A stretch of 64,000 nucleotides of DNA from Candidatus Methanosuratincola sp. (lineage in GTDB: Archaea > Thermoproteota > Methanomethylicia > Methanomethylicales > Methanomethylicaceae). How positions within the stretch are numbered: position 1 is the first letter of the stretch; each line of letters begins with the position of its first letter. Made by a program: the position numbers and the translations under genes. Below the pieces are notes generated by a model, which did no database searches, was not told the origin of the DNA, and saw nothing but the letters and a program-made list of their open reading frames with translations. The DNA is taken from assembly GCA_037478935.1 (NCBI GenBank), contig JBBFLR010000006.1, positions 2,865 to 66,864 of the forward strand, given 5' to 3'. Shown here piece by piece: positions 11,121 to 62,028 of the stretch.

Positions 11121-12302
11121 TCATTCCGTCCCTACGACCCTCATTATCTTGGCATAATTGTAATCCACAACCACCCTTATAGTCCCGGATAAAAGGGAGT
11201 CTAGTTCGGGGTCTCCCGTGTCGACCCTCAGCAATCTGATATTCCTCAATTTATCCCTTGTAGCTATCACGACGAGGTTTTCCCTCCCTACTGCCCTGAT
11301 CACCCTCGGACTTATCTGCTGGTTCCCCCTCCCGAAGATGAATCCCTGATTCCCTATCGGAGAGACGATTATCTTTGCTTTCCCGTCTCTGACATTCCTG
11401 AAGACGACCTCCTCCGGGGCGTCCGCTGCGACAAGTGCCCCGTCCCTTATGATGTCGACACCGAGCTGCGATCCATCGATGCCCAAGACTTGGTTTATCC
11501 TCTTGACTGTGCTGCCCGGGCCAAGCACATAGGCCACGCCCCCCTCCATCCCCTCGACTACCCACTCCGCTATCGCCATGGCGTTTTCGATGACGTCATC
11601 ACTCGACTGCGTCGCAACCTTCAGGCCCTGTACCCTCTCTGGGTCGTAGGGGACACTCATATACCCGTATATTCTGGACGAGACCCTCCCCTGCCTGAAG
11701 TCCTCCTCGTCCACGTCCGCCACCTCCGCCTCCTTTAGGGGGAGTTCGCCCCAAAGGAACCTCACAAGGATCCATGCAGCCGCCTCTGGGCTCACCGCGA
11801 AGACCCCGCTATGCATCTTGACTCCTGCGGGTATGCCGATGACCGGCACATCCTCCCCGACCGTGTCGAAGATGTCCCTTGCGGTCCCGTCCCCGCCGCA
11901 GAAAACAATCACCCCGACCCCTTCTTCAAGCATCTTTTTAGCCGCCAGCCTGGTGTCTTCGCTAGTCGTCCTCTCCTTCCTCTCCATCCCCCGCAAAATC
12001 CTGAATGGTAGCGCCGCCCTCATGAACGCATCTTCCCCCATCTCGCCTGGACAGGTGAGGAAATCGATCGCTGCTCCAAAGGGCTTCAACTTCTCTAGGA
12101 ACCTCGCCGCCCTATTGACTGACACCTTAACGGCACCGAGTTGGACGGCCCTCTCGACCAAACCGTCTGTGCCCTTCAACCCTACCGCTCCCCCCATGCC
12201 TGCCACGGGGTTGACGATCAGCCCCGCCCTCCTGATGCCAGACACGGTGTTCTCGCCCCTCTTGACCGCTCGGGGGACGGTCGCTGCGTCAGATCCTCTC
12301 AA
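11121..12302 (-). CDS. ATP-NAD kinase-like protein (COG3199-type)
   Basis: GLIVNPVAGMGGAVGLKGTDG and VIVFCGGDGTARDI motifs of the NAD kinase / diacylglycerol kinase fold. The ORF start overlaps the ileS stop by 14 nt, so the true start is uncertain. Confidence 0.65.
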   Translation of the reverse strand: MRGSDAATVPRAVKRGENTVSGIRRAGLIVNPVAGMGGAVGLKGTDGLVERAVQLGAVKVSVNRAARFLEKLKPFGAAIDFLTCPGEMGEDAFMRAALPFRILRGMERKERTTSEDTRLAAKKMLEEGVGVIVFCGGDGTARDIFDTVGEDVPVIGIPAGVKMHSGVFAVSPEAAAWILVRFLWGELPLKEAEVADVDEEDFRQGRVSSRIYGYMSVPYDPERVQGLKVATQSSDDVIENAMAIAEWVVEGMEGGVAYVLGPGSTVKRINQVLGIDGSQLGVDIIRDGALVAADAPEEVVFRNVRDGKAKIIVSPIGNQGFIFGRGNQQISPRVIRAVGRENLVVIATRDKLRNIRLLRVDTGDPELDSLLSGTIRVVVDYNYAKIMRVVGTE

Positions 12303-33412: not shown

Positions 33413-33808
33413 TTACTTGACCCTCATTATGTGCTTCTCATTCAGTATGTCCCAGTACTCGACCTCTGCCCCTGGGGCTATCTTCGCCATTATCTCCTCG
33501 TCTTTCGGTTTCTTCACTTCAAACGTCTCATAGCTCTCCAGATCCATAAGCTGGACCGAGTCCGCCATGATCGAGATGACTTGGGCAGCCCTCTTCTCCA
33601 CAATCGGGACATCGACTCTCTGGTCTGCAGGGGCAACGATGTTTCTCTTAATGCCGTCAAAGATCCCGACCGCAACAACTCTGCCTTTCGCTGAGCCGTG
33701 CTTTCCGGTCTTCGATTTTTCCATTGAGACGACCCTGCAAGGGACGCCGTCTATGACCACGAAGCTGCCCTCTTTCAGGGAGCCGATTTCAACAGGTTTC
33801 GTAGACAT
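33413..33808 (-). CDS. eif5a: Translation initiation factor 5A (aIF5A)
   Basis: [13 protein letters not shown] hypusine loop and OB fold. 131 aa. Confidence 0.93.
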
Positions 33809-34133
33809 CAGTCTCTACCATCCGCTTGTTTTTGAGTAAATGGAATAAGTAAATAAATCTTATCGTATTCTCAGGCAGGACTTTAAAGGAGGTCCTGGTG
33901 GTTACATACAACAATGCCTACGGTCTTTCGCGGATGGCAAAATAGCTTCCCCAATTAAATCCTTTCTTATGCCATGTTCCGCCGATCATTAGTGCCAAAG
34001 AACCGGTGACTGGTTTTCTAGACCTGAAATCTTTTGCTAATGTGCTAATCGAGTCATTGATTATTTGAAAAATTGAGAAATAATTGTAAAAACTTAATAA
34101 ATATGGACTAGTTATTATGTTTAGGGTAAAATT

Positions 34134-34958
34134 ATGGACAATGATTTGAGAAGGGAGCTTATTTCGAAATCCCCAGTAACCATGGAGTCCCTTAGGAAGC
34201 TGAACATAGGAGCAGGGGCCCTCCACTTGGTGCAGGGAATAATCATGCTGGCTTTGGGCACACTCTTGACATGGGAACGGGATATTTACACCTTTTATCT
34301 CAAGTTTGAAGTGATCCCCTCGAACCCGCCTGTTTTCCAGGTTCTGCCAAACCCTCAGGTCGCCTTCACGATCACCTATCTCGGAGCCATACTGGCATCG
34401 TTCCTTCTGATATCCGCAGCTGCACACATGATCATCGCGTTCGCAAGGACCAGGCAATACGCAGAGTACTTAAAGAGGGGGATGAACCCGTATCGATGGT
34501 ATGAGTATGCATTCTCCAGCTCGATTATGCTAGTGATCTTGGCAACTTTTGTTGGGGTCTGGGAGTTGTGGTCACTTGTCATGATCTTCGTGCTGAACGC
34601 GATGATGATCATGTTCGGCTACCTGATGGAAAAGATCAACCAGTACACAAAGAAGATCGACTGGTCCCCTTATCTTTTGGGCTGCATCTCTGGCTTCACC
34701 CCGTGGGTGGTCGTAGCCGCCTACTTCGTTGCCGCTCTGAATTCGACCGGGACAAGCCCGCCAACATTCGTTTACTTAGCGCTCGTTCTTTATTTCGTGA
34801 TGTTCAACACATTCTCGATCAACATGCTTCTCCAGTACAAGGGGATCGGTAGGTGGAAAGACTACCTTCATGGTGAGCGGGTCTACATTATACTGAGCCT
34901 AGTGGCTAAAACAATACTGGCCTGGCTAGTCTTCATCGGAATATTCGCACCATTCTAA
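34134..34958 (+). CDS. Heliorhodopsin (7-TM retinal protein, inverted topology family)
   Basis: NIGAGALHLVQGIIMLAL, AAAHMIIAF, RWYEYAFSSSIMLVILA (TM3 Glu), NAMMIMFGYLMEK, GCISGFTPWVVV and LQYKGIGRWKDYLHGERVYIILSLVAKTILAW (Schiff-base Lys). From memory these match heliorhodopsin 48C12 closely. Confidence 0.9.
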   Translation: MDNDLRRELISKSPVTMESLRKLNIGAGALHLVQGIIMLALGTLLTWERDIYTFYLKFEVIPSNPPVFQVLPNPQVAFTITYLGAILASFLLISAAAHMIIAFARTRQYAEYLKRGMNPYRWYEYAFSSSIMLVILATFVGVWELWSLVMIFVLNAMMIMFGYLMEKINQYTKKIDWSPYLLGCISGFTPWVVVAAYFVAALNSTGTSPPTFVYLALVLYFVMFNTFSINMLLQYKGIGRWKDYLHGERVYIILSLVAKTILAWLVFIGIFAPF

Positions 34959-34960
34959 AT

Positions 34961-34976
34961 CCCCTTTTTCTTTATC
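34961..34976 (+). terminator. T-rich tract after heliorhodopsin stop
   Basis: CCCCTTTTTCTTTATCC lies immediately after the TAA. Archaeal termination typically uses oligo-T. It is followed by the inverted repeat ACTGGTG-N8-CACCAGT (34990-35011). Confidence 0.35.
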
Positions 34977-35021: not shown

Positions 35022-35402
35022 ATGCGGGCATTACTTAAGTTCGTGAGGGGATCCAGATTGCCTACCTCGTTCTCGGTGCAGTCCCCTAGGTGCGACCAGC
35101 GGACTCGGATAGTTGCAGCGAAGGAAGGTTCAACAATCAAAATAATGATCAACACGACCTGCCCGAGAGTGAAAGCTTATGGGGAGGCCCTCGCTGAAAT
35201 CAACATCAAAGACTTAGCCCAGCCTATACTCAAAAACCCGATTTACGTTATAGCCTCCTCGAACCTCGGTCCTGAATGCGTCGTGCCTTGTGCGGTTGTT
35301 TCCGCCGCTTGGACAGAAGCCGGAATGGTCGCTAAGAGTATTCTTAACAGGTTCCCAAGCACCTGCTTCACTTATGAAGGATCCTCTGATAACAGATGGT
35401 AA
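35022..35402 (+). CDS. Small cysteine-containing hypothetical protein
   Basis: Five Cys residues (SPRC, TTCP, PEC, VPC, STC). The pattern C-x3-T-x-I..A....I.I..TTCP...L...L.E.....L....N.IY..AS.....C.VPCAVV.A..TEAGM recalls a family of small uncharacterised proteins from anaerobes. The alternative TTG start at 35058 has a better SD (GAGGGGA) and TATA spacing. Confidence 0.5.
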   Translation: MRALLKFVRGSRLPTSFSVQSPRCDQRTRIVAAKEGSTIKIMINTTCPRVKAYGEALAEINIKDLAQPILKNPIYVIASSNLGPECVVPCAVVSAAWTEAGMVAKSILNRFPSTCFTYEGSSDNRW

Positions 35403-35485: not shown

Positions 35486-35845
35486 ATGGGTGGAAAAATG
35501 GTAGACTTGATCTCTGTTATTATCAACCTCGTCATCAGTGTAATCATTCTATCTCCGGCGCTCTGGCTAGTCGGTAGATGGCTTGTCGGTAAAGACAAGG
35601 CTAAGTTCACCGATGCGATCTGGATTGTAGTCATCGGCACAATTGTGGGCACCATATTCGGCTATTTCAATCTGGGTCTGGTAGGGGCTTTAATTATGCT
35701 GATAATCTGGCTGGCCCTAATCAAGCACTTCTTTGACTGCGGGTGGCTCAAGGCATTGCTGATCGCAATAGTGACAGTCGTTGTCTTCATAATCATCGGC
35801 ATAGTGTTGGCTCTGCTCGGCTTTGCACTTTTAGCTATCATCTAG
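35486..35845 (+). CDS. Small membrane protein (3-4 TM)
   Basis: Strongly hydrophobic 119-aa ORF. The alternative ATG at 35498 is preceded by GGTGGA. A T-rich tract (CCTTTTTTATC) follows the stop. Confidence 0.55.
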   Translation: MGGKMVDLISVIINLVISVIILSPALWLVGRWLVGKDKAKFTDAIWIVVIGTIVGTIFGYFNLGLVGALIMLIIWLALIKHFFDCGWLKALLIAIVTVVVFIIIGIVLALLGFALLAII

Positions 35846-35990: not shown

Positions 35991-36533
35991 CTATCTGTGG
36001 TGATGCTCTGGTATGCAATACCTGCACCCGTCGTATCCCGCCGCAAGCGCCTCCTCTAGATCGCAGAAATAGACCCTGTTCCTGGTGGCAATCCGGTGTG
36101 CCCACTCGCAATCCTTCTTGTGGACCTCCATGTGTTCGGGTGACCTGTTTGCGACGTAGGGTGCATACGACCCTATGCCTGAAGTTTCGATGTTCGCTGC
36201 GACAATGGCTTCTGGCTCGTCGATGAAGAGCTTAGTGAATGTCGCCTTGACTTTCACCGCGGTTCCTGGTATGCTCTCCTCAATGACCGCCGGGAAGAGC
36301 ACGATCGGCGGCAGGTTCTCGACTATCCTGTCTATCAACCAGTTGACAAAATAGTTCAGGAGGAACTCGGGTATCTCCCAGTTGAGCGGTATCGAGAGGT
36401 CCAAGTCAAGTATGTCGACGACTAGCTGGTTCTTCTCGTCCAAGTAGACCCTTGCAGACGCCGAGTCGATATTGATGACCAGGTTGTTGACGGACAGGCT
36501 GAATATCTCCCCAGTATACGTCTCTGTCGACAT
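35991..36533 (-). CDS. C-terminal part of a large unknown protein; ends in an Ada-like zinc-binding module
   Basis: A beta-rich segment (EIFSLSVNNLVINIDSASARVYLDEKNQLVVDILDLDLS) is followed by HKKDCEWAHRIATRNRVYFCDLEEALAAGYDGCRYCIPE. That second segment matches the H-x3-C...NRV.F....A..AGY..C..C pattern of Ada-type metal-binding domains. It overlaps the upstream ORF in a different frame (see the frameshift finding). Confidence 0.5.
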   Translation of the reverse strand: MSTETYTGEIFSLSVNNLVINIDSASARVYLDEKNQLVVDILDLDLSIPLNWEIPEFLLNYFVNWLIDRIVENLPPIVLFPAVIEESIPGTAVKVKATFTKLFIDEPEAIVAANIETSGIGSYAPYVANRSPEHMEVHKKDCEWAHRIATRNRVYFCDLEEALAAGYDGCRYCIPEHHHR

Positions 36534-37563
36534 CCCAAAGCCCCCAGAAAAGCGACGTTGTAGTCTGTATCCTGACGTATGCTCTCATCCAAGCATCGAT
36601 CGAGACGCTCCCTGCGATCTCCACAACGTTGCCAGGCTTCATGTCGAAGTCGAACTTGCTGAACTTTATTGTGGCCCCGAACTCCGCCCAGACCCGTTTT
36701 ATGTCAATCTCGGTGCTCACCAGCCCTAGAGTGCAGGCAGCCACCACCCAGTCCGCGAGCTCGTCCAGCCATTCAACAATTGTCGGCATTTCAAAATCGT
36801 GGCTGCCGGTCTGCGTGATCGACTTCGGATGCGTCGTCCTGTCCCACCAGAAGTCATATACCCTGTGCATCGCTCCCTCGTTGACGCCGATCCCGATGTG
36901 GCTTCCATCCGTGAAGTCAGAGACTGAGTTGATGTCGCCGCCGTTGTATCCAAGCAAGTTGACCGCTACGCAGATTGTCGACGGATTCAGGACACGGAAA
37001 TTCCCCAGCCCGACAGTGAGCTTGTTCTCGTCCCCTGCTGGCATATTCGGGAGCTCTGTGGCGAATAGAACTGGGCTCAGTTCCAATGTTGTAAGATCCT
37101 CGGTCAAGTACTCGTGCATCGCGATCGTCATTATCTCGTTCAGCCTGGCTATCACATTGGTTGGGAGGTGGTAAGCGTCGTTCAGCTCGACGTCGTCAAT
37201 GCTCGCGCTCACCAGGTCGATCTTCAGCCTGCGGGTTGATTGATCGAATGACGGGGAGACCCCAACCGTGAACTCGACCTCGATCTCAAACTCTATCCCC
37301 CCCAGTACAGTGAACTTTGCCTGCCCCCTCACATTCATCCGCAGGTGGAGGTCTGCCGTGGCCTCGATCGTCGGTGGCTTCGAAAGGGAGACTTCGTACC
37401 CTATCACTGTGAACTCCTTCAGGCTATCTGGCACATTTGGTATAGGGAGCGTGTAAGTCCCCTTGAGCACAGGGAATGCGCCTATGCAATGCCCGATCTT
37501 CATGAACTTGTTCAGTAGCTCTTCCCTAGCTTCCAAGACGACGTCGTACCCTCCTGTCTGCAT
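36406..37563 (-). CDS. N-terminal part of a large unknown beta-rich protein (frame changes near 36541)
   Basis: ATG at 37563 (MQTGGYDVVLEAREELL) overlaps the upstream stop as TGATG. The sequence is protein-like up to ...RIQTTTSLFW. The last roughly 45 codons (DVDRDVYWGDIQPVRQQPGHQYRLGVCKGLLGREEPASRRHT) look non-coding. Confidence 0.55.
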   Translation of the reverse strand: MQTGGYDVVLEAREELLNKFMKIGHCIGAFPVLKGTYTLPIPNVPDSLKEFTVIGYEVSLSKPPTIEATADLHLRMNVRGQAKFTVLGGIEFEIEVEFTVGVSPSFDQSTRRLKIDLVSASIDDVELNDAYHLPTNVIARLNEIMTIAMHEYLTEDLTTLELSPVLFATELPNMPAGDENKLTVGLGNFRVLNPSTICVAVNLLGYNGGDINSVSDFTDGSHIGIGVNEGAMHRVYDFWWDRTTHPKSITQTGSHDFEMPTIVEWLDELADWVVAACTLGLVSTEIDIKRVWAEFGATIKFSKFDFDMKPGNVVEIAGSVSIDAWMRAYVRIQTTTSLFWGLWDVDRDVYWGDIQPVRQQPGHQYRLGVCKGLLGREEPASRRHT

Positions 37564-37928
37564 CAATCTTCACCCCCCAGCGACTTCTCGCATCTGCCAG
37601 TCTCTTTGTCTATGTGCACACGTATCTTCAATGGTTTCCCTTCCACCACGCGTTTCAGATACCAATTCTTAGCCTCTGGTCTGTTCTTGACGACCTCTCT
37701 AAGGTCTGCCCTCACCTTCGAGTTTAGTCTTTCCATCACCTTACCCTTGAAAACATCGTCTACCTTGATACCCTCCTTTTGGAGAGTTCCTTGAAAATCC
37801 TTCTTCAGGCGCTCTTCTAGCGAGGGGTCGCTTGCGATGCGCTTCCTGATCAGTTCCAGCTCGGGCAAATCTAATCCAGAGAATTTACTTCTGTCGATTT
37901 TTGTTTTTTTCAATACAAACACTACCAA
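37563..37928 (-). CDS. Hypothetical protein (121 aa), first gene of the unknown operon
   Basis: Charged, helical-looking sequence (LPELELIRKRIASDPSLEERLKKDFQGTLQKEGIKVDD...). TTG start, with other in-frame GTG/TTG starts possible. A TATA-like ACTTAAATAATATT lies about 30 nt upstream on the minus strand. Confidence 0.45.
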   Translation of the reverse strand: MVVFVLKKTKIDRSKFSGLDLPELELIRKRIASDPSLEERLKKDFQGTLQKEGIKVDDVFKGKVMERLNSKVRADLREVVKNRPEAKNWYLKRVVEGKPLKIRVHIDKETGRCEKSLGGED

Positions 37929-38171: not shown

Positions 38172-38846
38172 TTACCAGGCACTCGATGGATCCTGCTTCA
38201 GCTTCGCCACTAGATCCTTTGTCACGCCTACTGCTGCTGAGGCATCGTGAGGTCTTGCATCTGCGCCTATGGACAGTGCCCACTCCTCGGTCACTGGGCC
38301 GCCCCCGACGATTATCTTGACCTTGTTCCTGACCCCTGCTTGGGCGAACATGTCGATCACTCTCTTCATTGCTGGCATCGTCGTGCTCATCAGCGCAGAC
38401 ATCCCAACGACCTCTGCCTTATTATCCTTAGCAGTCTCCAGGAACTTTGCCAACGGCACGTCTTTGCCGAGGTCGATAACATTGAACCCGGCGGCGCTGA
38501 GCATTATCTTGACCAGGTTCTTACCGATGTCGTGGATGTCTCCTTCGACCACTCCGAGGACCACCTTCGCCGGCACCGCTGTCTTGTCAGCCTTCATGTA
38601 CGGAGTAAGTACATCGACAGCTGCATTGAGCGCATTGGCGGAGCAGAGCACCTCTGGGACAAAGTACTCCTTCTTCTCGTACTTCTGATTCACTACACTC
38701 ATCGCGTCGCCGCCGTATTTCGTGACGAGCTCATATGCGTCTAGCTTCGCAGCAACAGCCTCGTTTGCCCACTTGGCAGCAGCTACCTCGTCGCCGTCGA
38801 CTATGGCTTTTACAAACCCGTTTATGATTTCTTCTCTAGTTGCCAT
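38172..38846 (-). CDS. Corrinoid (B12-binding) protein of a methyltransferase system (MtaC/MtbC/MttC-like)
   Basis: An N-terminal helical cap, then VVLGVVEGDIHDIGKNLV (DxHxxG), MSALMSTT and a GGG motif. The ATG at 38846 has a GAGGTG SD 8 nt upstream. Confidence 0.88.
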   Translation of the reverse strand: MATREEIINGFVKAIVDGDEVAAAKWANEAVAAKLDAYELVTKYGGDAMSVVNQKYEKKEYFVPEVLCSANALNAAVDVLTPYMKADKTAVPAKVVLGVVEGDIHDIGKNLVKIMLSAAGFNVIDLGKDVPLAKFLETAKDNKAEVVGMSALMSTTMPAMKRVIDMFAQAGVRNKVKIIVGGGPVTEEWALSIGADARPHDASAAVGVTKDLVAKLKQDPSSAW

Positions 38847-38856
38847 CACCAACACC

Positions 38857-39882
38857 TCACACATAAACCATGCATCTTGCTACTTCGACCATTGCCTTGA
38901 AGTTCGCAGTCGGAGTCCTCGGGGGTATGCCGCACGATGGCATCAGCACATCGACACCTTTCTTGATTGCGTCAACCGCCGCATCCCTGACCTTCTGCGG
39001 AGTACCGAAGAGTAGCGCCGTAATGGTCGGCACGCCTCCAACTATGGCTATCTTATCGCCCACAATAGCCTTTGCAAACGCCGGGTCAACTTGGGCATCT
39101 ACCGAAAATGCATCGAACCCTGTATCTGCGATAAAAGGCAGGTAAGACGAAGTGTTACCGCAGATGTGCAGCACTATGGGCGCCCCGATCTTCTTTGCCA
39201 TGTTCTGGTATACTGGAACCATCACATCCCTGAAGAACTGTGGCGACAAGATGTCCGAGGTCGCGGACGGGTCTGCTATGCAGACTACGTCGGCACCGCT
39301 CTGGAGTGCCTTCTTGCAGTCATCAACGTTCATCTCGGATATGCGCATCAGCGCCTCCTTGACCTCCTCCTGCGGCCTCTTCTTGGTCCAGATGCAGAAC
39401 TTCTCGATCCCAAAGATGTGTCCGGCAACCGTGAACGGGCCTGTAACTTGGTTGATCACGGGCAGGTAGTCGCCGTACTCCTTCCTGAGCATCTCCTCGA
39501 CCCTGTGCTTTAGCGGGAACCTGCCGGTCTCCACCATGTTCTCCGGTATCTTGAGATCCTTCAGGTCATTGAAGACATGCGTCTCCACGCTAGGATGCCT
39601 GTCTATCCTCCCCCAGTTGATCTTGCACCCGAAGGCCTCTGCTTCGACACAGAGATCGAAAGGCAGTTTGAACCCCTCAAGCCCTATTACCTCCCAGGCA
39701 GCGGCTGCGAGCTTGAAAGCAAGCTGCGGATCCCTGTTTGCCTCAGGGAAAGGCGCGTTCACTGCATTCATCTGTTCGACTGTAGCCGTAGTCAGAGTGT
39801 CCATGCAGCTTATCCTGTCCGCCCGCTTCTTGTTGCCTGTGACGCAAAGAAGGGCACGTTTACGCGGCGTCATTTCGGCCAT
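38857..39882 (-). CDS. Uroporphyrinogen decarboxylase-family methyltransferase (MtaA/MtbA-like methylcobamide methyltransferase)
   Basis: URO-D fold pattern (FDLCVEAEAFGC, TGPFTVAGHIFG, ADVVCIADPSAT, VLHICGNT, MPSCGIPPRTP). The ATG at 39882 is preceded by GGAAGGTGAT. Confidence 0.85.
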   Translation of the reverse strand: MAEMTPRKRALLCVTGNKKRADRISCMDTLTTATVEQMNAVNAPFPEANRDPQLAFKLAAAAWEVIGLEGFKLPFDLCVEAEAFGCKINWGRIDRHPSVETHVFNDLKDLKIPENMVETGRFPLKHRVEEMLRKEYGDYLPVINQVTGPFTVAGHIFGIEKFCIWTKKRPQEEVKEALMRISEMNVDDCKKALQSGADVVCIADPSATSDILSPQFFRDVMVPVYQNMAKKIGAPIVLHICGNTSSYLPFIADTGFDAFSVDAQVDPAFAKAIVGDKIAIVGGVPTITALLFGTPQKVRDAAVDAIKKGVDVLMPSCGIPPRTPTANFKAMVEVARCMVYV

Positions 39883-40056
39883 ATAATCACCTTCCGCTTT
39901 TATCTTGATGCTTTTATATAAAGAATTTCTAGGATGGATAATCCGTCCTTTATTATAAATACTTGCCGTGCAGATCCTTGTTCCATTCAAAAACCCCTAA
40001 CGCGAAGAAGTTATAAAACAGCCTTGGTTGCACAATACTAACGGAGTAGGAAGGTT

Positions 40057-40890
40057 TTGAGGATCTCGAGAGTAGAAATCGTCGCCAAGCCGAATTCGGA
40101 GGAGGCCGCGAGGGTAGCCTTAGACGTGGGGCATTTTCTCTCATCAAGGGGGGTGGAGGTGATCCGCTCCACAGGGATTCAGAGAGAGGGCGTATTTGAA
40201 AAGCCCGTGGAGGCGACGACGGCCGACCTAATTCTGGTTGTTGGCGGGGACGGCACAATAATGCGGACCGCCCAGAGGGCGGGCTCAACGCCAATCCTTG
40301 GCATAAAGGTCGGGGCAAGGGGCTTTCTCTGCGAGACCGTCCCAGAAGACGCCGTCAAAACACTTACCTGCGTCCTGGAGGGCAAGACCTACCTCGAATA
40401 CAAGACCAAACTTTCAGTAAAATTCGGTGGACATCTGCTCCCTGATGCCCTCAACGAGGTGCTCGTGACCTCCTCGAGGCCTTCAAAGATAATTCGCTTC
40501 CTAGTTTCTGCGAACGGCAAGCGCATCCATCGTGGGATGGCTGACGGCGTCATTGTGTCCACGACTACCGGGGCTACCGCATATGCTCTTTCTGCAGGCG
40601 GACCCTTGATTGATCCTGACTTGGACGCAATTGAGCTGGTCTTCGTATGCCCGCTCCATCATGGGGTGCGGCCGGTAATCCTTCCCCCCTCAGCGAAGGT
40701 CGAGGTCAGTCTGTTGCCCGGCTCATCCAGCGGATTGTTAGTCCTCGACGGTCAGACCTCTGTCTGTTTGGAGGAGGGCGGGCAGATCTTTGTAGAAAAG
40801 TCAAAGCTACCTGCAGTCTTTCTGAGGACTGCCCCTCCTGACTTCTATGAAAGAGTGAGGAAATCGCTGAGTATGGGGTTTGAGGCATAG
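40057..40890 (+). CDS. nadK: NAD(+) kinase
   Basis: LILVVGGDGTIMRTAQ, NEVLV and STTTGATAYALSAGGPLIDP. TTG start behind a GGAAGG SD. Confidence 0.88.
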   Translation: MRISRVEIVAKPNSEEAARVALDVGHFLSSRGVEVIRSTGIQREGVFEKPVEATTADLILVVGGDGTIMRTAQRAGSTPILGIKVGARGFLCETVPEDAVKTLTCVLEGKTYLEYKTKLSVKFGGHLLPDALNEVLVTSSRPSKIIRFLVSANGKRIHRGMADGVIVSTTTGATAYALSAGGPLIDPDLDAIELVFVCPLHHGVRPVILPPSAKVEVSLLPGSSSGLLVLDGQTSVCLEEGGQIFVEKSKLPAVFLRTAPPDFYERVRKSLSMGFEA

Positions 40891-55497: not shown

Positions 55498-55606
55498 TGG
55501 CGCCGGGGAAGGGATTCGAACCCTTGCTCCCCCGAGAGGGAACCGGCTTGCCTGTCCCACGGATAAGATCTCGAGGCCGGCGCCTTAACCGCTCAGCCAC
55601 CCCGGC
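55498..55606 (-). tRNA. tRNA-Ser (CGA) with about 21-nt intron, CCA encoded
   Basis: The minus strand reads GCCGGGG-TGGCTGAGCGGTTAAGGCG-CCGGC-CTCGAG-[ATCTTATCCGTGGGACAGGCA]-A-GCCGG-TTCCCTCTCGGGGGAGC-AAGGGTTCGAATCCCTT-CCCCGGC-G-CCA. It is class II, with a long variable arm. Confidence 0.85.
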
Positions 55607-58157: not shown

Positions 58158-59780
58158 TTGAACTTGGCTGGAAACATGAGGGCTGCTGTAGAGATGGTGC
58201 TCAATTCAGGTTTCCAGCTGTCACCCGATGCCTTCGAATACCTTGCCTCGAAGGAGGATCCCGATCGCCTTGTCGAGCATGCTCTCAAGACCATTAAAGG
58301 ATCCGGATCGGCTCCACTTGTTTTGAATCGTACCCACTTTGAGGGGCTTGAAGGCTCCCTGCGAAGGGGCGATCCGCGACCGTGCGGGTGCAAAACAACA
58401 CCCGGGTCAGTTGGACCAGGTTCGACGATCAGTGCTGAGGCTGGGGGATCCCCTGAGCTTTTACGGGGGTCCCGGAAGCTGGCCGCCGAGCCGGTATCCG
58501 GATACGGCGGCATCCGCACCGCCGTCTCGCCCGTCTCGACCCTGCTTGGTGGCGATGAAGTGAAACTTATCTCAGGCCTGGAACGGGTGACGATAAGGGG
58601 CAAGGCGAGCGATTTTAGGGACTACTTCAGGGATCGGCTCGAGTCCCTCTCCTCGATTCTGCGTTCCAGGGCTGACGTAAGCGGCGCGACGACCGCCTCG
58701 CAGGTTCCTGACGGCCTCAGGTGGCATAAGGTCAAGTTCATCGGCATGGTCAACTCGAAGAGGGAGTTCAGGGACGGAACCGTGGTTGCCGAGCTGGAGG
58801 ACAAGGACGGTATTGTGAAAGTTACCTTCAGAGGCGACGCGGCTATAAAGAAGGCTGCCCGTCTCCTCGTCGACGAGGTGGTGTGCGTGTTTGGCGCCAC
58901 GAAGAACGGCAGTTCGGTAATCGCCGAGGACGTGATCTGGCCCGACATACCGTACAGGTCCAGATCCCCTGCCGCCCCTTCTGACCACCACTACGCGGTC
59001 CTAACCTCAGACGTTCACATCGGGAGCAAGACATTCCTGAGGGATGACTTCGAGAGGTTCCTTGGCTGGCTCAGGGGCGAGACCGACGAACCGAGGCTCA
59101 AGGAGATCGCGAGCAAGACAAAGTACCTCGTTATAGCCGGCGACCTCGTCGACGGTGTGGGCGTCTACCCCAACCAGGAGGAGGAGCTTGAAGTCGCAGA
59201 CCTTTTTGATCAGTACAGGATCGCGGCGGAGTACCTGTCCACACTGCCTGATCGGATCAGGATAATCATAATACCCGGGAACCACGACGCCTGCCGGCCA
59301 ACCCTGCCCACCCCCCCGATCTACAGCGACTACGCTGCGCCGCTCTACTCGATGGAGAACGTCCTCATGCTCGGAGACCCTTCTTTCGTGAATCTCAGCG
59401 GCGCGACCTTCCTCCTGACGCACGGGAGGAGCCTCGACGACGTGATCCCCTTCCTCCCAGACTGCAACTTCAGGGAACCGCAGAGGGCGATGGTCGAGCT
59501 CCTCAAGTCGAGGCACATCGCCCCGATCTACGGTGAGAAAACGCCTCTCGCCCCCGAGCCCAAGGACCGCCTTGTGATCGACCCCGTCCCTGACATATTC
59601 CACGCGGGGCACGTCCATGTAGAGGGGGTCGCCGAGTACAGGGGGGTCCTGGTGGTCAATTCGGGCACGTGGCAGTCGCAGACCAAGTACCAGCTTTCGG
59701 CTGGGATAGTGCCCAAGCCCTCCGTGGTGCCGGTCGTCGACCTCTCCACGATGAAGACCTATGAGCTCAATTTCAGCTAG
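58158..59780 (+). CDS. DNA polymerase II (PolD) small subunit DP1
   Basis: An OB-fold region, then calcineurin-like phosphoesterase motifs VLTSDVHIGS, AGDLVDGVG, IIIPGNHDA and GHVH. The start is the TTG at 58158 or the ATG at 58176. The TATA AATTAAAAAAAATTAAG lies at 58118-58135. Confidence 0.9.
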   Translation: MNLAGNMRAAVEMVLNSGFQLSPDAFEYLASKEDPDRLVEHALKTIKGSGSAPLVLNRTHFEGLEGSLRRGDPRPCGCKTTPGSVGPGSTISAEAGGSPELLRGSRKLAAEPVSGYGGIRTAVSPVSTLLGGDEVKLISGLERVTIRGKASDFRDYFRDRLESLSSILRSRADVSGATTASQVPDGLRWHKVKFIGMVNSKREFRDGTVVAELEDKDGIVKVTFRGDAAIKKAARLLVDEVVCVFGATKNGSSVIAEDVIWPDIPYRSRSPAAPSDHHYAVLTSDVHIGSKTFLRDDFERFLGWLRGETDEPRLKEIASKTKYLVIAGDLVDGVGVYPNQEEELEVADLFDQYRIAAEYLSTLPDRIRIIIIPGNHDACRPTLPTPPIYSDYAAPLYSMENVLMLGDPSFVNLSGATFLLTHGRSLDDVIPFLPDCNFREPQRAMVELLKSRHIAPIYGEKTPLAPEPKDRLVIDPVPDIFHAGHVHVEGVAEYRGVLVVNSGTWQSQTKYQLSAGIVPKPSVVPVVDLSTMKTYELNFS

Positions 59781-59823: not shown

Positions 59824-60429
59824 TCATGAAATTGCCTTGGAGAGCATGCAGCAGACCCTGAGTGGCTCCGGGGTCTTACCGAAGATTGAGAGGGATCTCA
59901 CCGCCATCGATGCAGCCTCCGGGTCTATCCCATAGCACCTCAAGAAGACTTCCCCTGCGCCTGCCACCTGAATCCTCAGCGGGCCGGTCGGTTTCATCAG
60001 AACTGCGAGTCTATCTCTCCAGTCCGCGAAATGCCTCCTCAAAGCGCCCTCAACGGCCTCTGCGTCCGGCTCATCCTCGAGCACGAATACAGAAGGCACC
60101 CCTGTCCTTTTCAAAATCTCTTCAGGATCGATCAGGTTGAATCCAGCGACCGGGACGCTCCTCGCAAAGAGGACCTCGACCTTCCATTTGTTGCCCAATA
60201 TGGCTTTGACGATCTTATCGGTCGCGTCCATCCCGTCGATCTCTACGTCTGCCACCGCGACCTTGATTGCCCTGATCCCTGATGCGGTTAGGAGCACTAA
60301 GGGGGTCGTGCCTTTCTTGAAGGGGTTGACCCTGCCCCCGCAGACAGAGATCGAGATAATGCCCAAATGGTACCCACCTTCGCCAAAGCCCTTCGAAAGC
60401 CCTGCAATTATGGATCGTCCATTTCCCAT
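59824..60429 (-). CDS. DUF99-family protein (endonuclease V-like fold, UPF0215)
   Basis: ...VADVEIDGMDATDKIVKAIL...VPVAGFNLID... resembles archaeal DUF99 proteins. The assignment is from memory. Confidence 0.5.
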   Translation of the reverse strand: MGNGRSIIAGLSKGFGEGGYHLGIISISVCGGRVNPFKKGTTPLVLLTASGIRAIKVAVADVEIDGMDATDKIVKAILGNKWKVEVLFARSVPVAGFNLIDPEEILKRTGVPSVFVLEDEPDAEAVEGALRRHFADWRDRLAVLMKPTGPLRIQVAGAGEVFLRCYGIDPEAASMAVRSLSIFGKTPEPLRVCCMLSKAIS

Positions 60430-60481: not shown

Positions 60482-61684
60482 TCACCTGCCCACAAGCGGC
60501 CCTAGCCGTGCGTCATCCTGCAGCGCTTCCTTGAGGTTTTTGGCTGAGACGCTCAGGCTCACTACCTTGGTCCTCCCGTATCTCCCCTTGCTAACGACCT
60601 TTGCGTTCGCTATCCCCAGCATGTCGAGCTCGTTGATCAGGTCGCTGATCCTTCTCTGGGTGAGCGGTTCGAGCCCCAGGTTCTTGGCGACCGTGCAATA
60701 GAAGTCGTAGAGCTCCCCCGTGGAACGGCCCTTTGGACCCCCCTTGCCCAGAAGGTTGAGGCTCAGGATCAGGAGCTTCGAGTGGAAGGGCATCGTCCTG
60801 ATGACTTCGACGACCCTGTCCTTCTCAATCTCCCTCTGGGCCATCCTCACGTGCTCCTCGGTGACTTTGGCATCGCCGTTCCTCTCCGCTATCTCGCCTG
60901 AGATGCGGAGGAGATCCAGCGCCCTCCTGGCGTCGCCGTGCTCCTTCGCGGCCAGCGCTGCGCAGAGCTTGATCACGCTCCTCTCTATTGCATTCTTGTT
61001 GAACGCGAGCGCCGCCCTCCTGCTGAGTATGTCCTCGAGCTCCGAGGCGTCATACGGGGGGAAGACGAGCTCCTCCTCGCCGAGGCTGCTCCTAACCCTC
61101 GGGTCTAGGTACTCCATGAACTTGAGGTCGTTCGTTATTCCGACTATTGCGATTCTGGTCTTGCTCAGCCACTGGTTTATCCTCGTCAGGTCGTAGAGGG
61201 CCTGGTCTCCCGTCTTCTTTACGAGCGCGTCCACCTCGTCCAGTACCGCGAAGATCATCCTCTCTGACGAGTCGACAAGTTTCACGAACCTCCTGAGCAC
61301 CTCTGAGGTCGAGAGTCCTGTAAACGGGATCCTCTCACCTGCGGACTCACAAAGGTCGGCCAAGACCCTGTAGTTCGTGTCATCCTGCTTGCAATTTATG
61401 TATGCAATCCCCAGGCTGACCCCTATCTTCCTTCCCTCCTCCTCGACCTTCTTCAGAACATACTTTGTGACCGCCGTCTTTCCGGTCCCCGGGACTCCGT
61501 AGATGAATATGTTGGACGGTCTAGACCCCTTCAGAGATGGTGCGAGGATCTCCGCGAGCCTGATTATCTGCCCCTCCCTATGGGGCAGGTCGTTCGGAAT
61601 ATAGTCCGGCCTCATCATCTCTCTGTTGGCAAAGATCTTTGCGCTCAGCACTCTGCTGAAAAGGCTGTCCAGCGGGTCCGTCAT
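60482..61684 (-). CDS. cdc6: Orc1/Cdc6 replication initiator
   Basis: LPHREGQIIRLAEILAP, Walker A IYGVPGTGKTAV, Walker B AVLDEVD, and a C-terminal winged helix. The ATG at 61684 (MTDPLDSLF) is preferred over the ORF start at 61798. Confidence 0.92.
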   Translation of the reverse strand: MTDPLDSLFSRVLSAKIFANREMMRPDYIPNDLPHREGQIIRLAEILAPSLKGSRPSNIFIYGVPGTGKTAVTKYVLKKVEEEGRKIGVSLGIAYINCKQDDTNYRVLADLCESAGERIPFTGLSTSEVLRRFVKLVDSSERMIFAVLDEVDALVKKTGDQALYDLTRINQWLSKTRIAIVGITNDLKFMEYLDPRVRSSLGEEELVFPPYDASELEDILSRRAALAFNKNAIERSVIKLCAALAAKEHGDARRALDLLRISGEIAERNGDAKVTEEHVRMAQREIEKDRVVEVIRTMPFHSKLLILSLNLLGKGGPKGRSTGELYDFYCTVAKNLGLEPLTQRRISDLINELDMLGIANAKVVSKGRYGRTKVVSLSVSAKNLKEALQDDARLGPLVGR

Positions 61685-62028
61685 GGTGGTCTCTCCAGGG
61701 GATGCATTTGAATTAGTGGATCCAATAGAAATATAAGCTCTTTTCAAGCCCCTCAGATGAAACAAAAGCGCCTTTTGATGTGGCGCCCGCTCCCCCATGA
61801 CGTACTAGGTTGTGTCCTCTTGACGTTTTGATTTAAATTTTGCGCACAGTCAGGCTCTTTTTTTGCATCAATCAAGTTCGGTCAGCCGCACTGCAAGCCC
61901 GTTAGGGTAGGATCTTTACGGATCGGTGAGCCTCCGGCGCCGGATACGGGTACGGGTAACAACAACGACAGGGTTTTAAATAGTCCGGGATGATACCCGT
62001 GATCATATCCATCTGAGGTGGCGGGAGC

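Follow-up and report, generated by a model that had tools for sequence, protein, structure and literature searches.

A genuine and selectively maintained heliorhodopsin in Candidatus Methanosuratincola

We analysed a 64,000-nt stretch of DNA from Candidatus Methanosuratincola sp. (contig JBBFLR010000006.1, positions 2,865 to 66,864, forward strand; hereafter the window) and, within it, a gene for a seven-transmembrane (7-TM) protein that an initial annotation had read as a heliorhodopsin (HeR) rather than a type-1 rhodopsin. The open reading frame (ORF) listing and its translation place the gene as follows:

34134 to 34958, plus strand: heliorhodopsin coding sequence with an ATG start, 274 amino acids

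This ORF is a genuine, intact and selectively maintained heliorhodopsin. Its coordinates were given correctly in the initial annotation, and every motif quoted there is found in the translation, namely GALHLVQ (residues 28–34), AAAHMIIAF (95–103), RWYEYAFSSS (121–130), NAMMIMFGYLMEK (155–167), GCISGFTPWVVV (183–194) and LQYKGIGRWKDYLHGERVYIILSLVAKTILAW (233–264).

The initial annotation had suggested a search with the family profile and an alignment to characterised heliorhodopsins as checks, and both bear out the assignment. The Pfam profile Heliorhodopsin (PF18761) matches the ORF with 306.7 bits (E = 1.3e-91, gathering cut-off 26.7) over profile positions 1–241 of 242, and the NCBIfam equivalog NF038020 ('heliorhodopsin HeR') scores 339.5 bits (E = 1e-101, cut-off 100) with coverage of 1–244 of 244. 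Both scores lie far above the cut-offs, and the family match is far beyond chance. In a Pfam scan of the 274-residue ORF at E ≤ 0.01, Heliorhodopsin is the sole family found, with no match to Bac_rhodopsin. A sequence search of the PDB (phmmer) returned six matches, all of them heliorhodopsins, headed by TaHeR (6is6, E = 6e-55) and followed by 48C12 (E = 7e-46).

In a three-way alignment, residues H31, S94, H98, E124, S255 and K259 of the window HeR correspond to H23, S76, H80, E107, S237 and K241 of 48C12 and to H23, S78, H82, E108, S234 and K238 of TaHeR; N118, W122, Y125 and W191 likewise agree in all three proteins. Lys, Glu and both His residues fall at the right positions. K259, located in TM7 (helix 244–271), is the Schiff-base lysine, and E124 in TM3 is the counterion glutamate. 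The position of the latter is pinned by the TaHeR mutant entry 7clj (E108D), which carries an Asp in the E124 column. The His pair near the Schiff base consists of H31 (TM1) and H98 (TM2), accompanied by the serines S94 and S255.

We built an AlphaFold2 model of the window HeR with 37 homologs (pLDDT 88, pTM 0.82). It has seven helices and a long extracellular β-hairpin between TM1 and TM2 (residues 48–81, strands 48–61 and 67–81). When this predicted structure was compared with the PDB by Foldseek, the ten top matches were all heliorhodopsins, and it superimposes on 6is6 with TM-scores of 0.84/0.92 and a root-mean-square deviation (rmsd) of 1.8 Å. Type-1 rhodopsin structures appear only at E ~6e-3 or worse, with 11–18% identity and rmsd values of ~8–9 Å. 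We rejected a type-1 microbial rhodopsin on account of this remote structural similarity and the missing Bac_rhodopsin match. The loops on the N-terminal side carry 11 Lys and Arg residues and those on the opposite side two, an asymmetry that, by the positive-inside rule, fits the inverted topology with a cytoplasmic N-terminus.

The best solved relative is TaHeR of the Thermoplasmatales archaeon SG8-52-1 (PDB 6is6, 7clj and 7u55; ~40% identity), which is also archaeal, although its host belongs to the Thermoplasmatota and that of the window HeR is a Thermoproteota methanogen. The Lys, Glu, His/His and Ser/Ser set is identical in the two proteins, and where 48C12 has Q213 both carry Met. The window HeR differs from TaHeR by a TM1-hairpin region that is ~9 residues longer and a TM5–TM6 loop that is five residues longer, and its pocket positions S129, N155, I159 and F221 resemble 48C12 rather than TaHeR. 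48C12, the founding heliorhodopsin from a freshwater actinobacterial fosmid (PDB 6su3, 6su4, 6uh3 and 9ljj), matches the window HeR in the six key residues and in fold (TM-score 0.78–0.82), but shares only 36–37% identity with it and comes from a bacterial host in an oxic, sunlit setting.

To describe conservation we used 119 close homologs (66–96% identity). At least 98% conservation is seen at 92 of the 274 positions, and S94, N118, W122, E124, Y125, W191, S255 and K259 are invariant in 119/119. Pairwise dN/dS values (Nei–Gojobori method, NG86) between the Methanomethylicia orthologs range from 0.03 to 0.11. Judged from these sequence comparisons, the protein is under strong purifying selection, its chromophore site included.

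The His pair is not universal. Both His residues are replaced, in perfect covariation, by Leu/Leu in 39 of the 119 clade members, in which L30F, F99L and Q170F co-vary and the Lys and Glu are retained. All Leu/Leu members are apparently of Methanobacterium type, for example P0056/L024 (Methanobacterium oryzae), P0069, L026 and L039, and the metagenome-assembled genome (MAG) of Methanobacterium sp. PtaB.Bin024 holds two copies, one His/His (L030) and one Leu/Leu (L039). Paralogs without both His residues show that canonical proton-acceptor chemistry is dispensable in at least some members, which would fit a light-independent role, whether in scaffolding at the membrane, in binding lipids, isoprenoids or retinoids, or in chemosensing. 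We nevertheless regard such a role as unlikely, since complete conservation of the Lys, Glu, Ser and Trp of the retinal site is hard to explain without a chromophore.

A scan of the GTDB species representatives yielded 342 loci encoding HeR relatives. The best matches are from Methanosuratincola sp. A05DMB-I-01 (94%) and the complete genome of Candidatus M. verstraetei LCB70 (93%), followed by Candidatus M. petrocarbonis LWZ-6 (83% in the raw comparison) and the Methanomethylicia MAG LCB019-004 (82%). The G+C content of the window (~0.555) is in line with the 54.4% reported for LWZ-6, and its genes, among them archaeal informational genes and a corrinoid protein with a URO-D-family methyltransferase (38172–39990), fit a methyl-reducing methanogen.

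By tblastn, the whole block around the HeR gene is kept in all three other Methanosuratincola genomes, in the order L21e, Pus10, methyltransferase, SRP54 and aIF5A, then HeR, a DUF6951 protein and a small TM protein, then three unknown genes, and finally the corrinoid protein, the URO-D-family protein and NAD kinase. The aIF5A/HeR junction is also kept in Candidatus Methanomethylicus mesodigestus (HeR 81% identical) and in MAG LCB019-004; in Methanomethylicus, the stretch from HeR to the corrinoid gene holds other genes instead (HSP20, a permease, Alba, ArsP and others). Methanosuratincola and Methanomethylicus share an average amino acid identity (AAI) of only ~62.5%, as against 81% for HeR. 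Because the junction is kept across two genera this distant, HeR is an old, vertically retained resident of it, and is conserved above the average protein.

The initial annotation had described the gene as inserted next to the aIF5A/SRP54 core cluster. The adjacency holds, whereas insertion as a recent event is contradicted by the conserved junction and by host-like G+C at third codon positions (GC3). The total G+C of the HeR gene is low (0.492, z = −2.3), but its GC3 is normal (0.662, z = −0.7), and the dip in G+C at 34–36 kb is due mainly to AT-rich spacers (0.375) and additionally to amino acid composition. With no tRNA or repeat beside the gene either, we discarded a recent insertion or genomic island.

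In the ortholog of LWZ-6 (CP130488.1, L019:8001-8825), the reading frame is broken by a +2 insertion near codon 43 and a −2 deletion near codon 66 that enclose two in-frame stops, and a 3-nt deletion is present as well. Ten substitutions are specific to this lineage; five of these fall at positions with at least 95% conservation in the clade, and W146R, G187C, L245P (all three among these five) and V134E are radical changes at clade-invariant sites; sister lineages have 3–6 lineage-specific substitutions, with none or one at conserved sites. After repair of the frame, dN/dS against the window HeR is 0.05, which rules out a long-decayed pseudogene. Since the ratio stays low once the frame is repaired, the disruption would be of recent date or, in part, an artefact of the assembly. 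LWZ-6 originates from oily sludge of an oil field and was cultivated in the dark, and a break in such a strain is expected if HeR is useful only where light reaches. That the sole disrupted copy found belongs to a strain from a dark habitat, kept in the dark, also speaks against a light-independent role. Going by its sequence, LWZ-6 may be a natural HeR-null strain.

Beyond the Methanomethylicia, relatives with 64–82% identity occur in Methanobacteriaceae, Bathyarchaeia, Conexivisphaerales and Nitrososphaeria MAGs. The Methanobacteriaceae carriers, which include M. oryzae, M. ferruginis and a Methanothermobacter MAG, reach up to 82%, and phyla are interleaved in a neighbour-joining tree of the HeR proteins. 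As a baseline for divergence across phyla we compared the neighbouring aIF5A with its homologs in the PDB; a baseline from genes shared by chance between HeR loci was dropped, as it gave one usable match (an aminoacyl-tRNA synthetase at 30% identity). Within the Methanomethylicia, aIF5A evolves more slowly than HeR (92% versus 81% identity), yet the window aIF5A is only 48% identical to that of M. jannaschii, 50% to that of Pyrococcus and 55–62% to those of other Thermoproteota. Because HeR is 64–82% identical across phyla while the slower aIF5A is at ~48%, horizontal movement of the clade between archaeal phyla of shared anoxic habitats is implied. The foreign origin of the window HeR is thus visible only at depth, in that its clade also takes in Methanobacteriaceae and Bathyarchaeia.

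Two observations concern the hosts of this clade. A HeR with 67% identity, in a clade that is archaeal in all other cases, lies on a 2.4-kb contig of a Candidatus Sumerlaeota bacterium MAG (L048); with a contig this short, mis-binning is likelier than cross-domain transfer. Several hosts, such as the Methanobacteriota MAG K_DeepCast_300m (L016), come from presumably aphotic sources, which one would not expect of a photoreceptor on which purifying selection is strong.

Horizontal movement also bears on the view that the gene is a neutral passenger, gained by transfer and drifting toward loss. A HeR that is 82% identical to Methanobacteriaceae copies, against ~48% for aIF5A, would suit this view, as would the broken ortholog of LWZ-6. 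The selection analysis disfavours it, and we consider it barely credible: dN/dS is 0.03–0.11 and a third of the protein is nearly invariant in the clade, position and reading frame have been kept across the two genera, and GC3 has converged on the host value.

The published counterpart of this clade is most likely the HeR cluster C10, which comprises HeRs of Bathyarchaeia and Methanobacteria from anaerobes (Bulzu et al. 2021, preprint). These taxa are the nearest relatives of the window HeR outside the Methanomethylicia, and although the Methanomethylicia are not named in the description of C10, the window HeR is almost certainly a member, as judged from taxonomy and not from the tree of Bulzu et al. 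Bathyarchaeotal HeRs and their transcription have already been published.

We then considered how the gene is expressed and what surrounds it. The features flanking HeR are:

33413 to 33808, minus strand: aIF5A, the divergent housekeeping neighbour, 325 bp from HeR, which marks the conserved junction
34094 to 34103, plus strand: TATA-like element TTAATAAATA, a putative archaeal promoter of HeR, ~35 nt 5′ of the ATG, recognised from sequence and alignment
34123 to 34127, plus strand: Shine–Dalgarno (SD)-like AGGGT, 7–11 nt 5′ of the ATG, with the AGG core present in 6/6 Methanomethylicia loci
34965 to 34973, plus strand: oligo-T tract TTTTTCTTT, a putative archaeal terminator that begins 7 nt past the TAA stop and is kept in 5/5 aligned genomes
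35022 to 35402, plus strand: DUF6951 protein (context only), ~64–100 nt 3′ of HeR, adjoining it only within Methanosuratincola
35486 to 35845, plus strand: small multi-pass membrane protein of 115–119 aa (context only), with no family match, at this place only within Methanosuratincola

The TATA-like element is part of a block, GAGAAATAATTGTAAAAA..TAWTAAAT, that is kept among the Methanosuratincola genomes. Since this block and the SD-like AGG precede the ATG and an oligo-T tract follows the stop, the flanking elements suggest that HeR is a stand-alone (monocistronic) transcription unit. Beyond aIF5A lie the genes for SRP54, a SPOUT-type RNA methyltransferase, Pus10 and ribosomal protein L21e. 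Neither the DUF6951 protein nor the small membrane protein has an NCBIfam match; as neighbours within the genus only, separated by ~100-nt spacers and the oligo-T tract, they were set aside as partners of HeR and stand as unproven candidates.

Further downstream, three consecutive genes on the minus strand (35991–37928; ~150–180, 386 and 121 aa) are 76–91% identical across the Methanosuratincola genomes and absent from Methanomethylicus, and gave no Pfam, NCBIfam or PDB match. The first of them ends in a Cys/His-rich tail (HKKDCEW...YFCD...GCRYCIPEHHH) that resembles a metal-binding motif. The corrinoid (B12-binding) protein and the URO-D-family methyltransferase (MtaA/MtbA-like) at 38172–39990 on the minus strand follow 3.2 kb 3′ of HeR; in Methanomethylicus they lie 8 kb downstream of it.

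Light-dependent modulation by HeRs has been reported for glutamine synthetase, photolyase and an ABC transporter. The respective proteins, AbHeR (glutamine synthetase), TfHeR (photolyase) and OcHeR (the ABC transporter OmrDE), belong to the same family as the window HeR and provide the model of a partner-regulating function, but they lie in operons with their partners, whereas the window HeR is apparently monocistronic, with no such gene in its vicinity. An operon-linked, partner-regulating type was thus rejected, given that no partner families are close by and an oligo-T tract follows the stop. The initial annotation had called the output of heliorhodopsins still unresolved. In view of the reported partners and of viral proton transport this is overstated, but none of the partner genes is found near the window HeR. 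We also compared the HeR contexts of Methanomethylicus, M. oryzae, a Bathyarchaeota MAG, a JGI contig and UBA587; those of Methanobacterium, Bathyarchaeota and other hosts all differ. A conserved partner gene was rejected after a tblastn search of all window proteins against ~80 foreign HeR loci, in which only HeR itself recurs.

A protein without a conserved partner gene, in a transcription unit of its own, would be suited to acting alone, for instance as a light-gated proton channel or transporter through which light changes membrane potential or pH directly. One branch of the family, that of the coccolithovirus protein V2HeR3, does transport protons. Ion transport has been reported only for this viral branch among more than 3,000 HeRs, while the relatives nearest to the window HeR are archaeal and the closest solved structures are those of the reportedly non-transporting TaHeR and 48C12, with the same Schiff-base environment. 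We therefore consider a channel or transporter decidedly improbable.

The initial annotation saw no retinal or carotenoid biosynthesis gene in the 64 kb, and our scans agree: in essentially all window ORFs of ~130 aa or more, Pfam searches found no SQS_PSY, phytoene desaturase, lycopene cyclase, Blh/BCD or RPE65. The known enzymes that form retinal by carotenoid cleavage require O2, which makes the question of the chromophore sharper in a strict anaerobe. The missing pathway and this O2 requirement, together with strictly anaerobic hosts that in many cases come from dark settings (digesters, an oil field, deep lake water), would be in keeping with a light-independent role, which we set against the invariant retinal site described above. 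Among HeR-only genomes, a full retinal pathway was found in 1/381, and capture of exogenous retinal is presumed (Bulzu et al., preprint). Missing retinal synthesis is the rule for such genomes and not special to the window locus.

Taken together, we favour, with moderate confidence, a light sensor with a slow photocycle that relies on scavenged retinal and modulates an unlinked partner. The 7-TM protein, with its N-terminus inside, would bind all-trans-retinal by a protonated Schiff base at K259, which would be stabilised by E124 as the single counterion and by the network of H31, H98, S94 and S255. Characterised HeRs have long-lived O intermediates and long photocycles, with ion transport in one viral branch only. 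By analogy with the non-viral examples, light would start a slow photocycle in which a long-lived O state arises without ion movement; this state would alter the conformation of the cytoplasmic face and so modulate a partner protein whose gene lies elsewhere in the genome. The retinal would most likely be scavenged from the surroundings, because the host is strictly anaerobic, no carotenoid or retinal genes lie in the window and the known cleavage enzymes need O2. The benefit may, speculatively, lie in the detection of surface layers that are lit and therefore exposed to oxygen or UV.

Several points weigh against this light-sensor reading. Many hosts of the clade come from probably dark places (digesters, an oil field, a 300 m lake cast), and the supply of retinal in anoxic habitats is a difficulty for HeR hosts. 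The disruption in LWZ-6 is known from one assembly and could partly be an assembly error. Ten classes of HeR neighbours have been described, including glutamine synthetase, photolyase, ABC transporter and MerR (Cho et al. 2024), and none of the ten is found within ±10 kb of the window HeR. Finally, neither the context comparison nor the tblastn search (~80 loci) revealed a HeR neighbour that is conserved outside the genus.

The light-sensor reading could be extended to Thermoproteota methanogens and the many HeR-bearing Methanobacteriaceae and Bathyarchaeia in general, which would then sense light via scavenged retinal and regulate methanogenic physiology or avoid oxic, UV-exposed layers. We put this forward tentatively and regard it as doubtful. 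One possibility within it is that light sensing would protect methyl-corrinoid or F420-dependent steps that are photolabile, an idea prompted by the corrinoid protein and methyltransferase 3 kb downstream of HeR. A functional tie of HeR to photolabile methyl-corrinoids is conceivable, but pure speculation.

Some features elsewhere in the window may be recorded here. At 55501–55606 (minus strand) lies a 106-nt tRNA (Rfam, 48.9 bits) that is not reported by ARAGORN and is probably an intron-containing archaeal tRNA. Genes for a DNA polymerase small-subunit/phosphoesterase (58158–59780, plus strand), Endonuclease dU (59824–60429, minus strand) and Cdc6/Orc1 (60482–61798, minus strand) are clustered, and the 230-bp spacer past Cdc6 (61799–62028) could hold a replication origin. 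The window also contains two paralogs of the NAD kinase family, an unusually long one of 393 aa (11121–12302, minus strand) and a second at 40057–40890 (plus strand).

As a protein, the window HeR is an ordinary addition to a known family; it leaves knowledge of the family unchanged and is unsurprising to a specialist. The cluster of HeRs from anaerobic archaea has been described, and annotation pipelines already label close homologs as HeR, as in the UniRef entry 'Heliorhodopsin HeR' for the Methanomethylicus ortholog. Our literature search found no paper that joins heliorhodopsin with Methanomethylic* or Methanosuratincola, and light sensing in the strictly anaerobic, cultivable Methanosuratincola lineage appears to be undiscussed.

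Heliorhodopsins are abundant, yet what they do in the cell has been worked out in only a few bacteria and in no archaeon. Here, the genomes of Methanosuratincola and Methanomethylicus keep an intact HeR, under strong constraint, in their conserved backbone. This lineage has recently become cultivable, and the clade of this HeR has spread horizontally among strictly anaerobic archaea, which are barred from the known O2-dependent routes to retinal. The host is thermophilic, and the protein may be thermostable and of biophysical interest. M. verstraetei LCB70, with an intact HeR, and M. petrocarbonis LWZ-6, with a frame-broken one, form a natural pair of cultures. The locus therefore offers an experimental handle on the role of heliorhodopsins in anaerobes and on the origin of their retinal.

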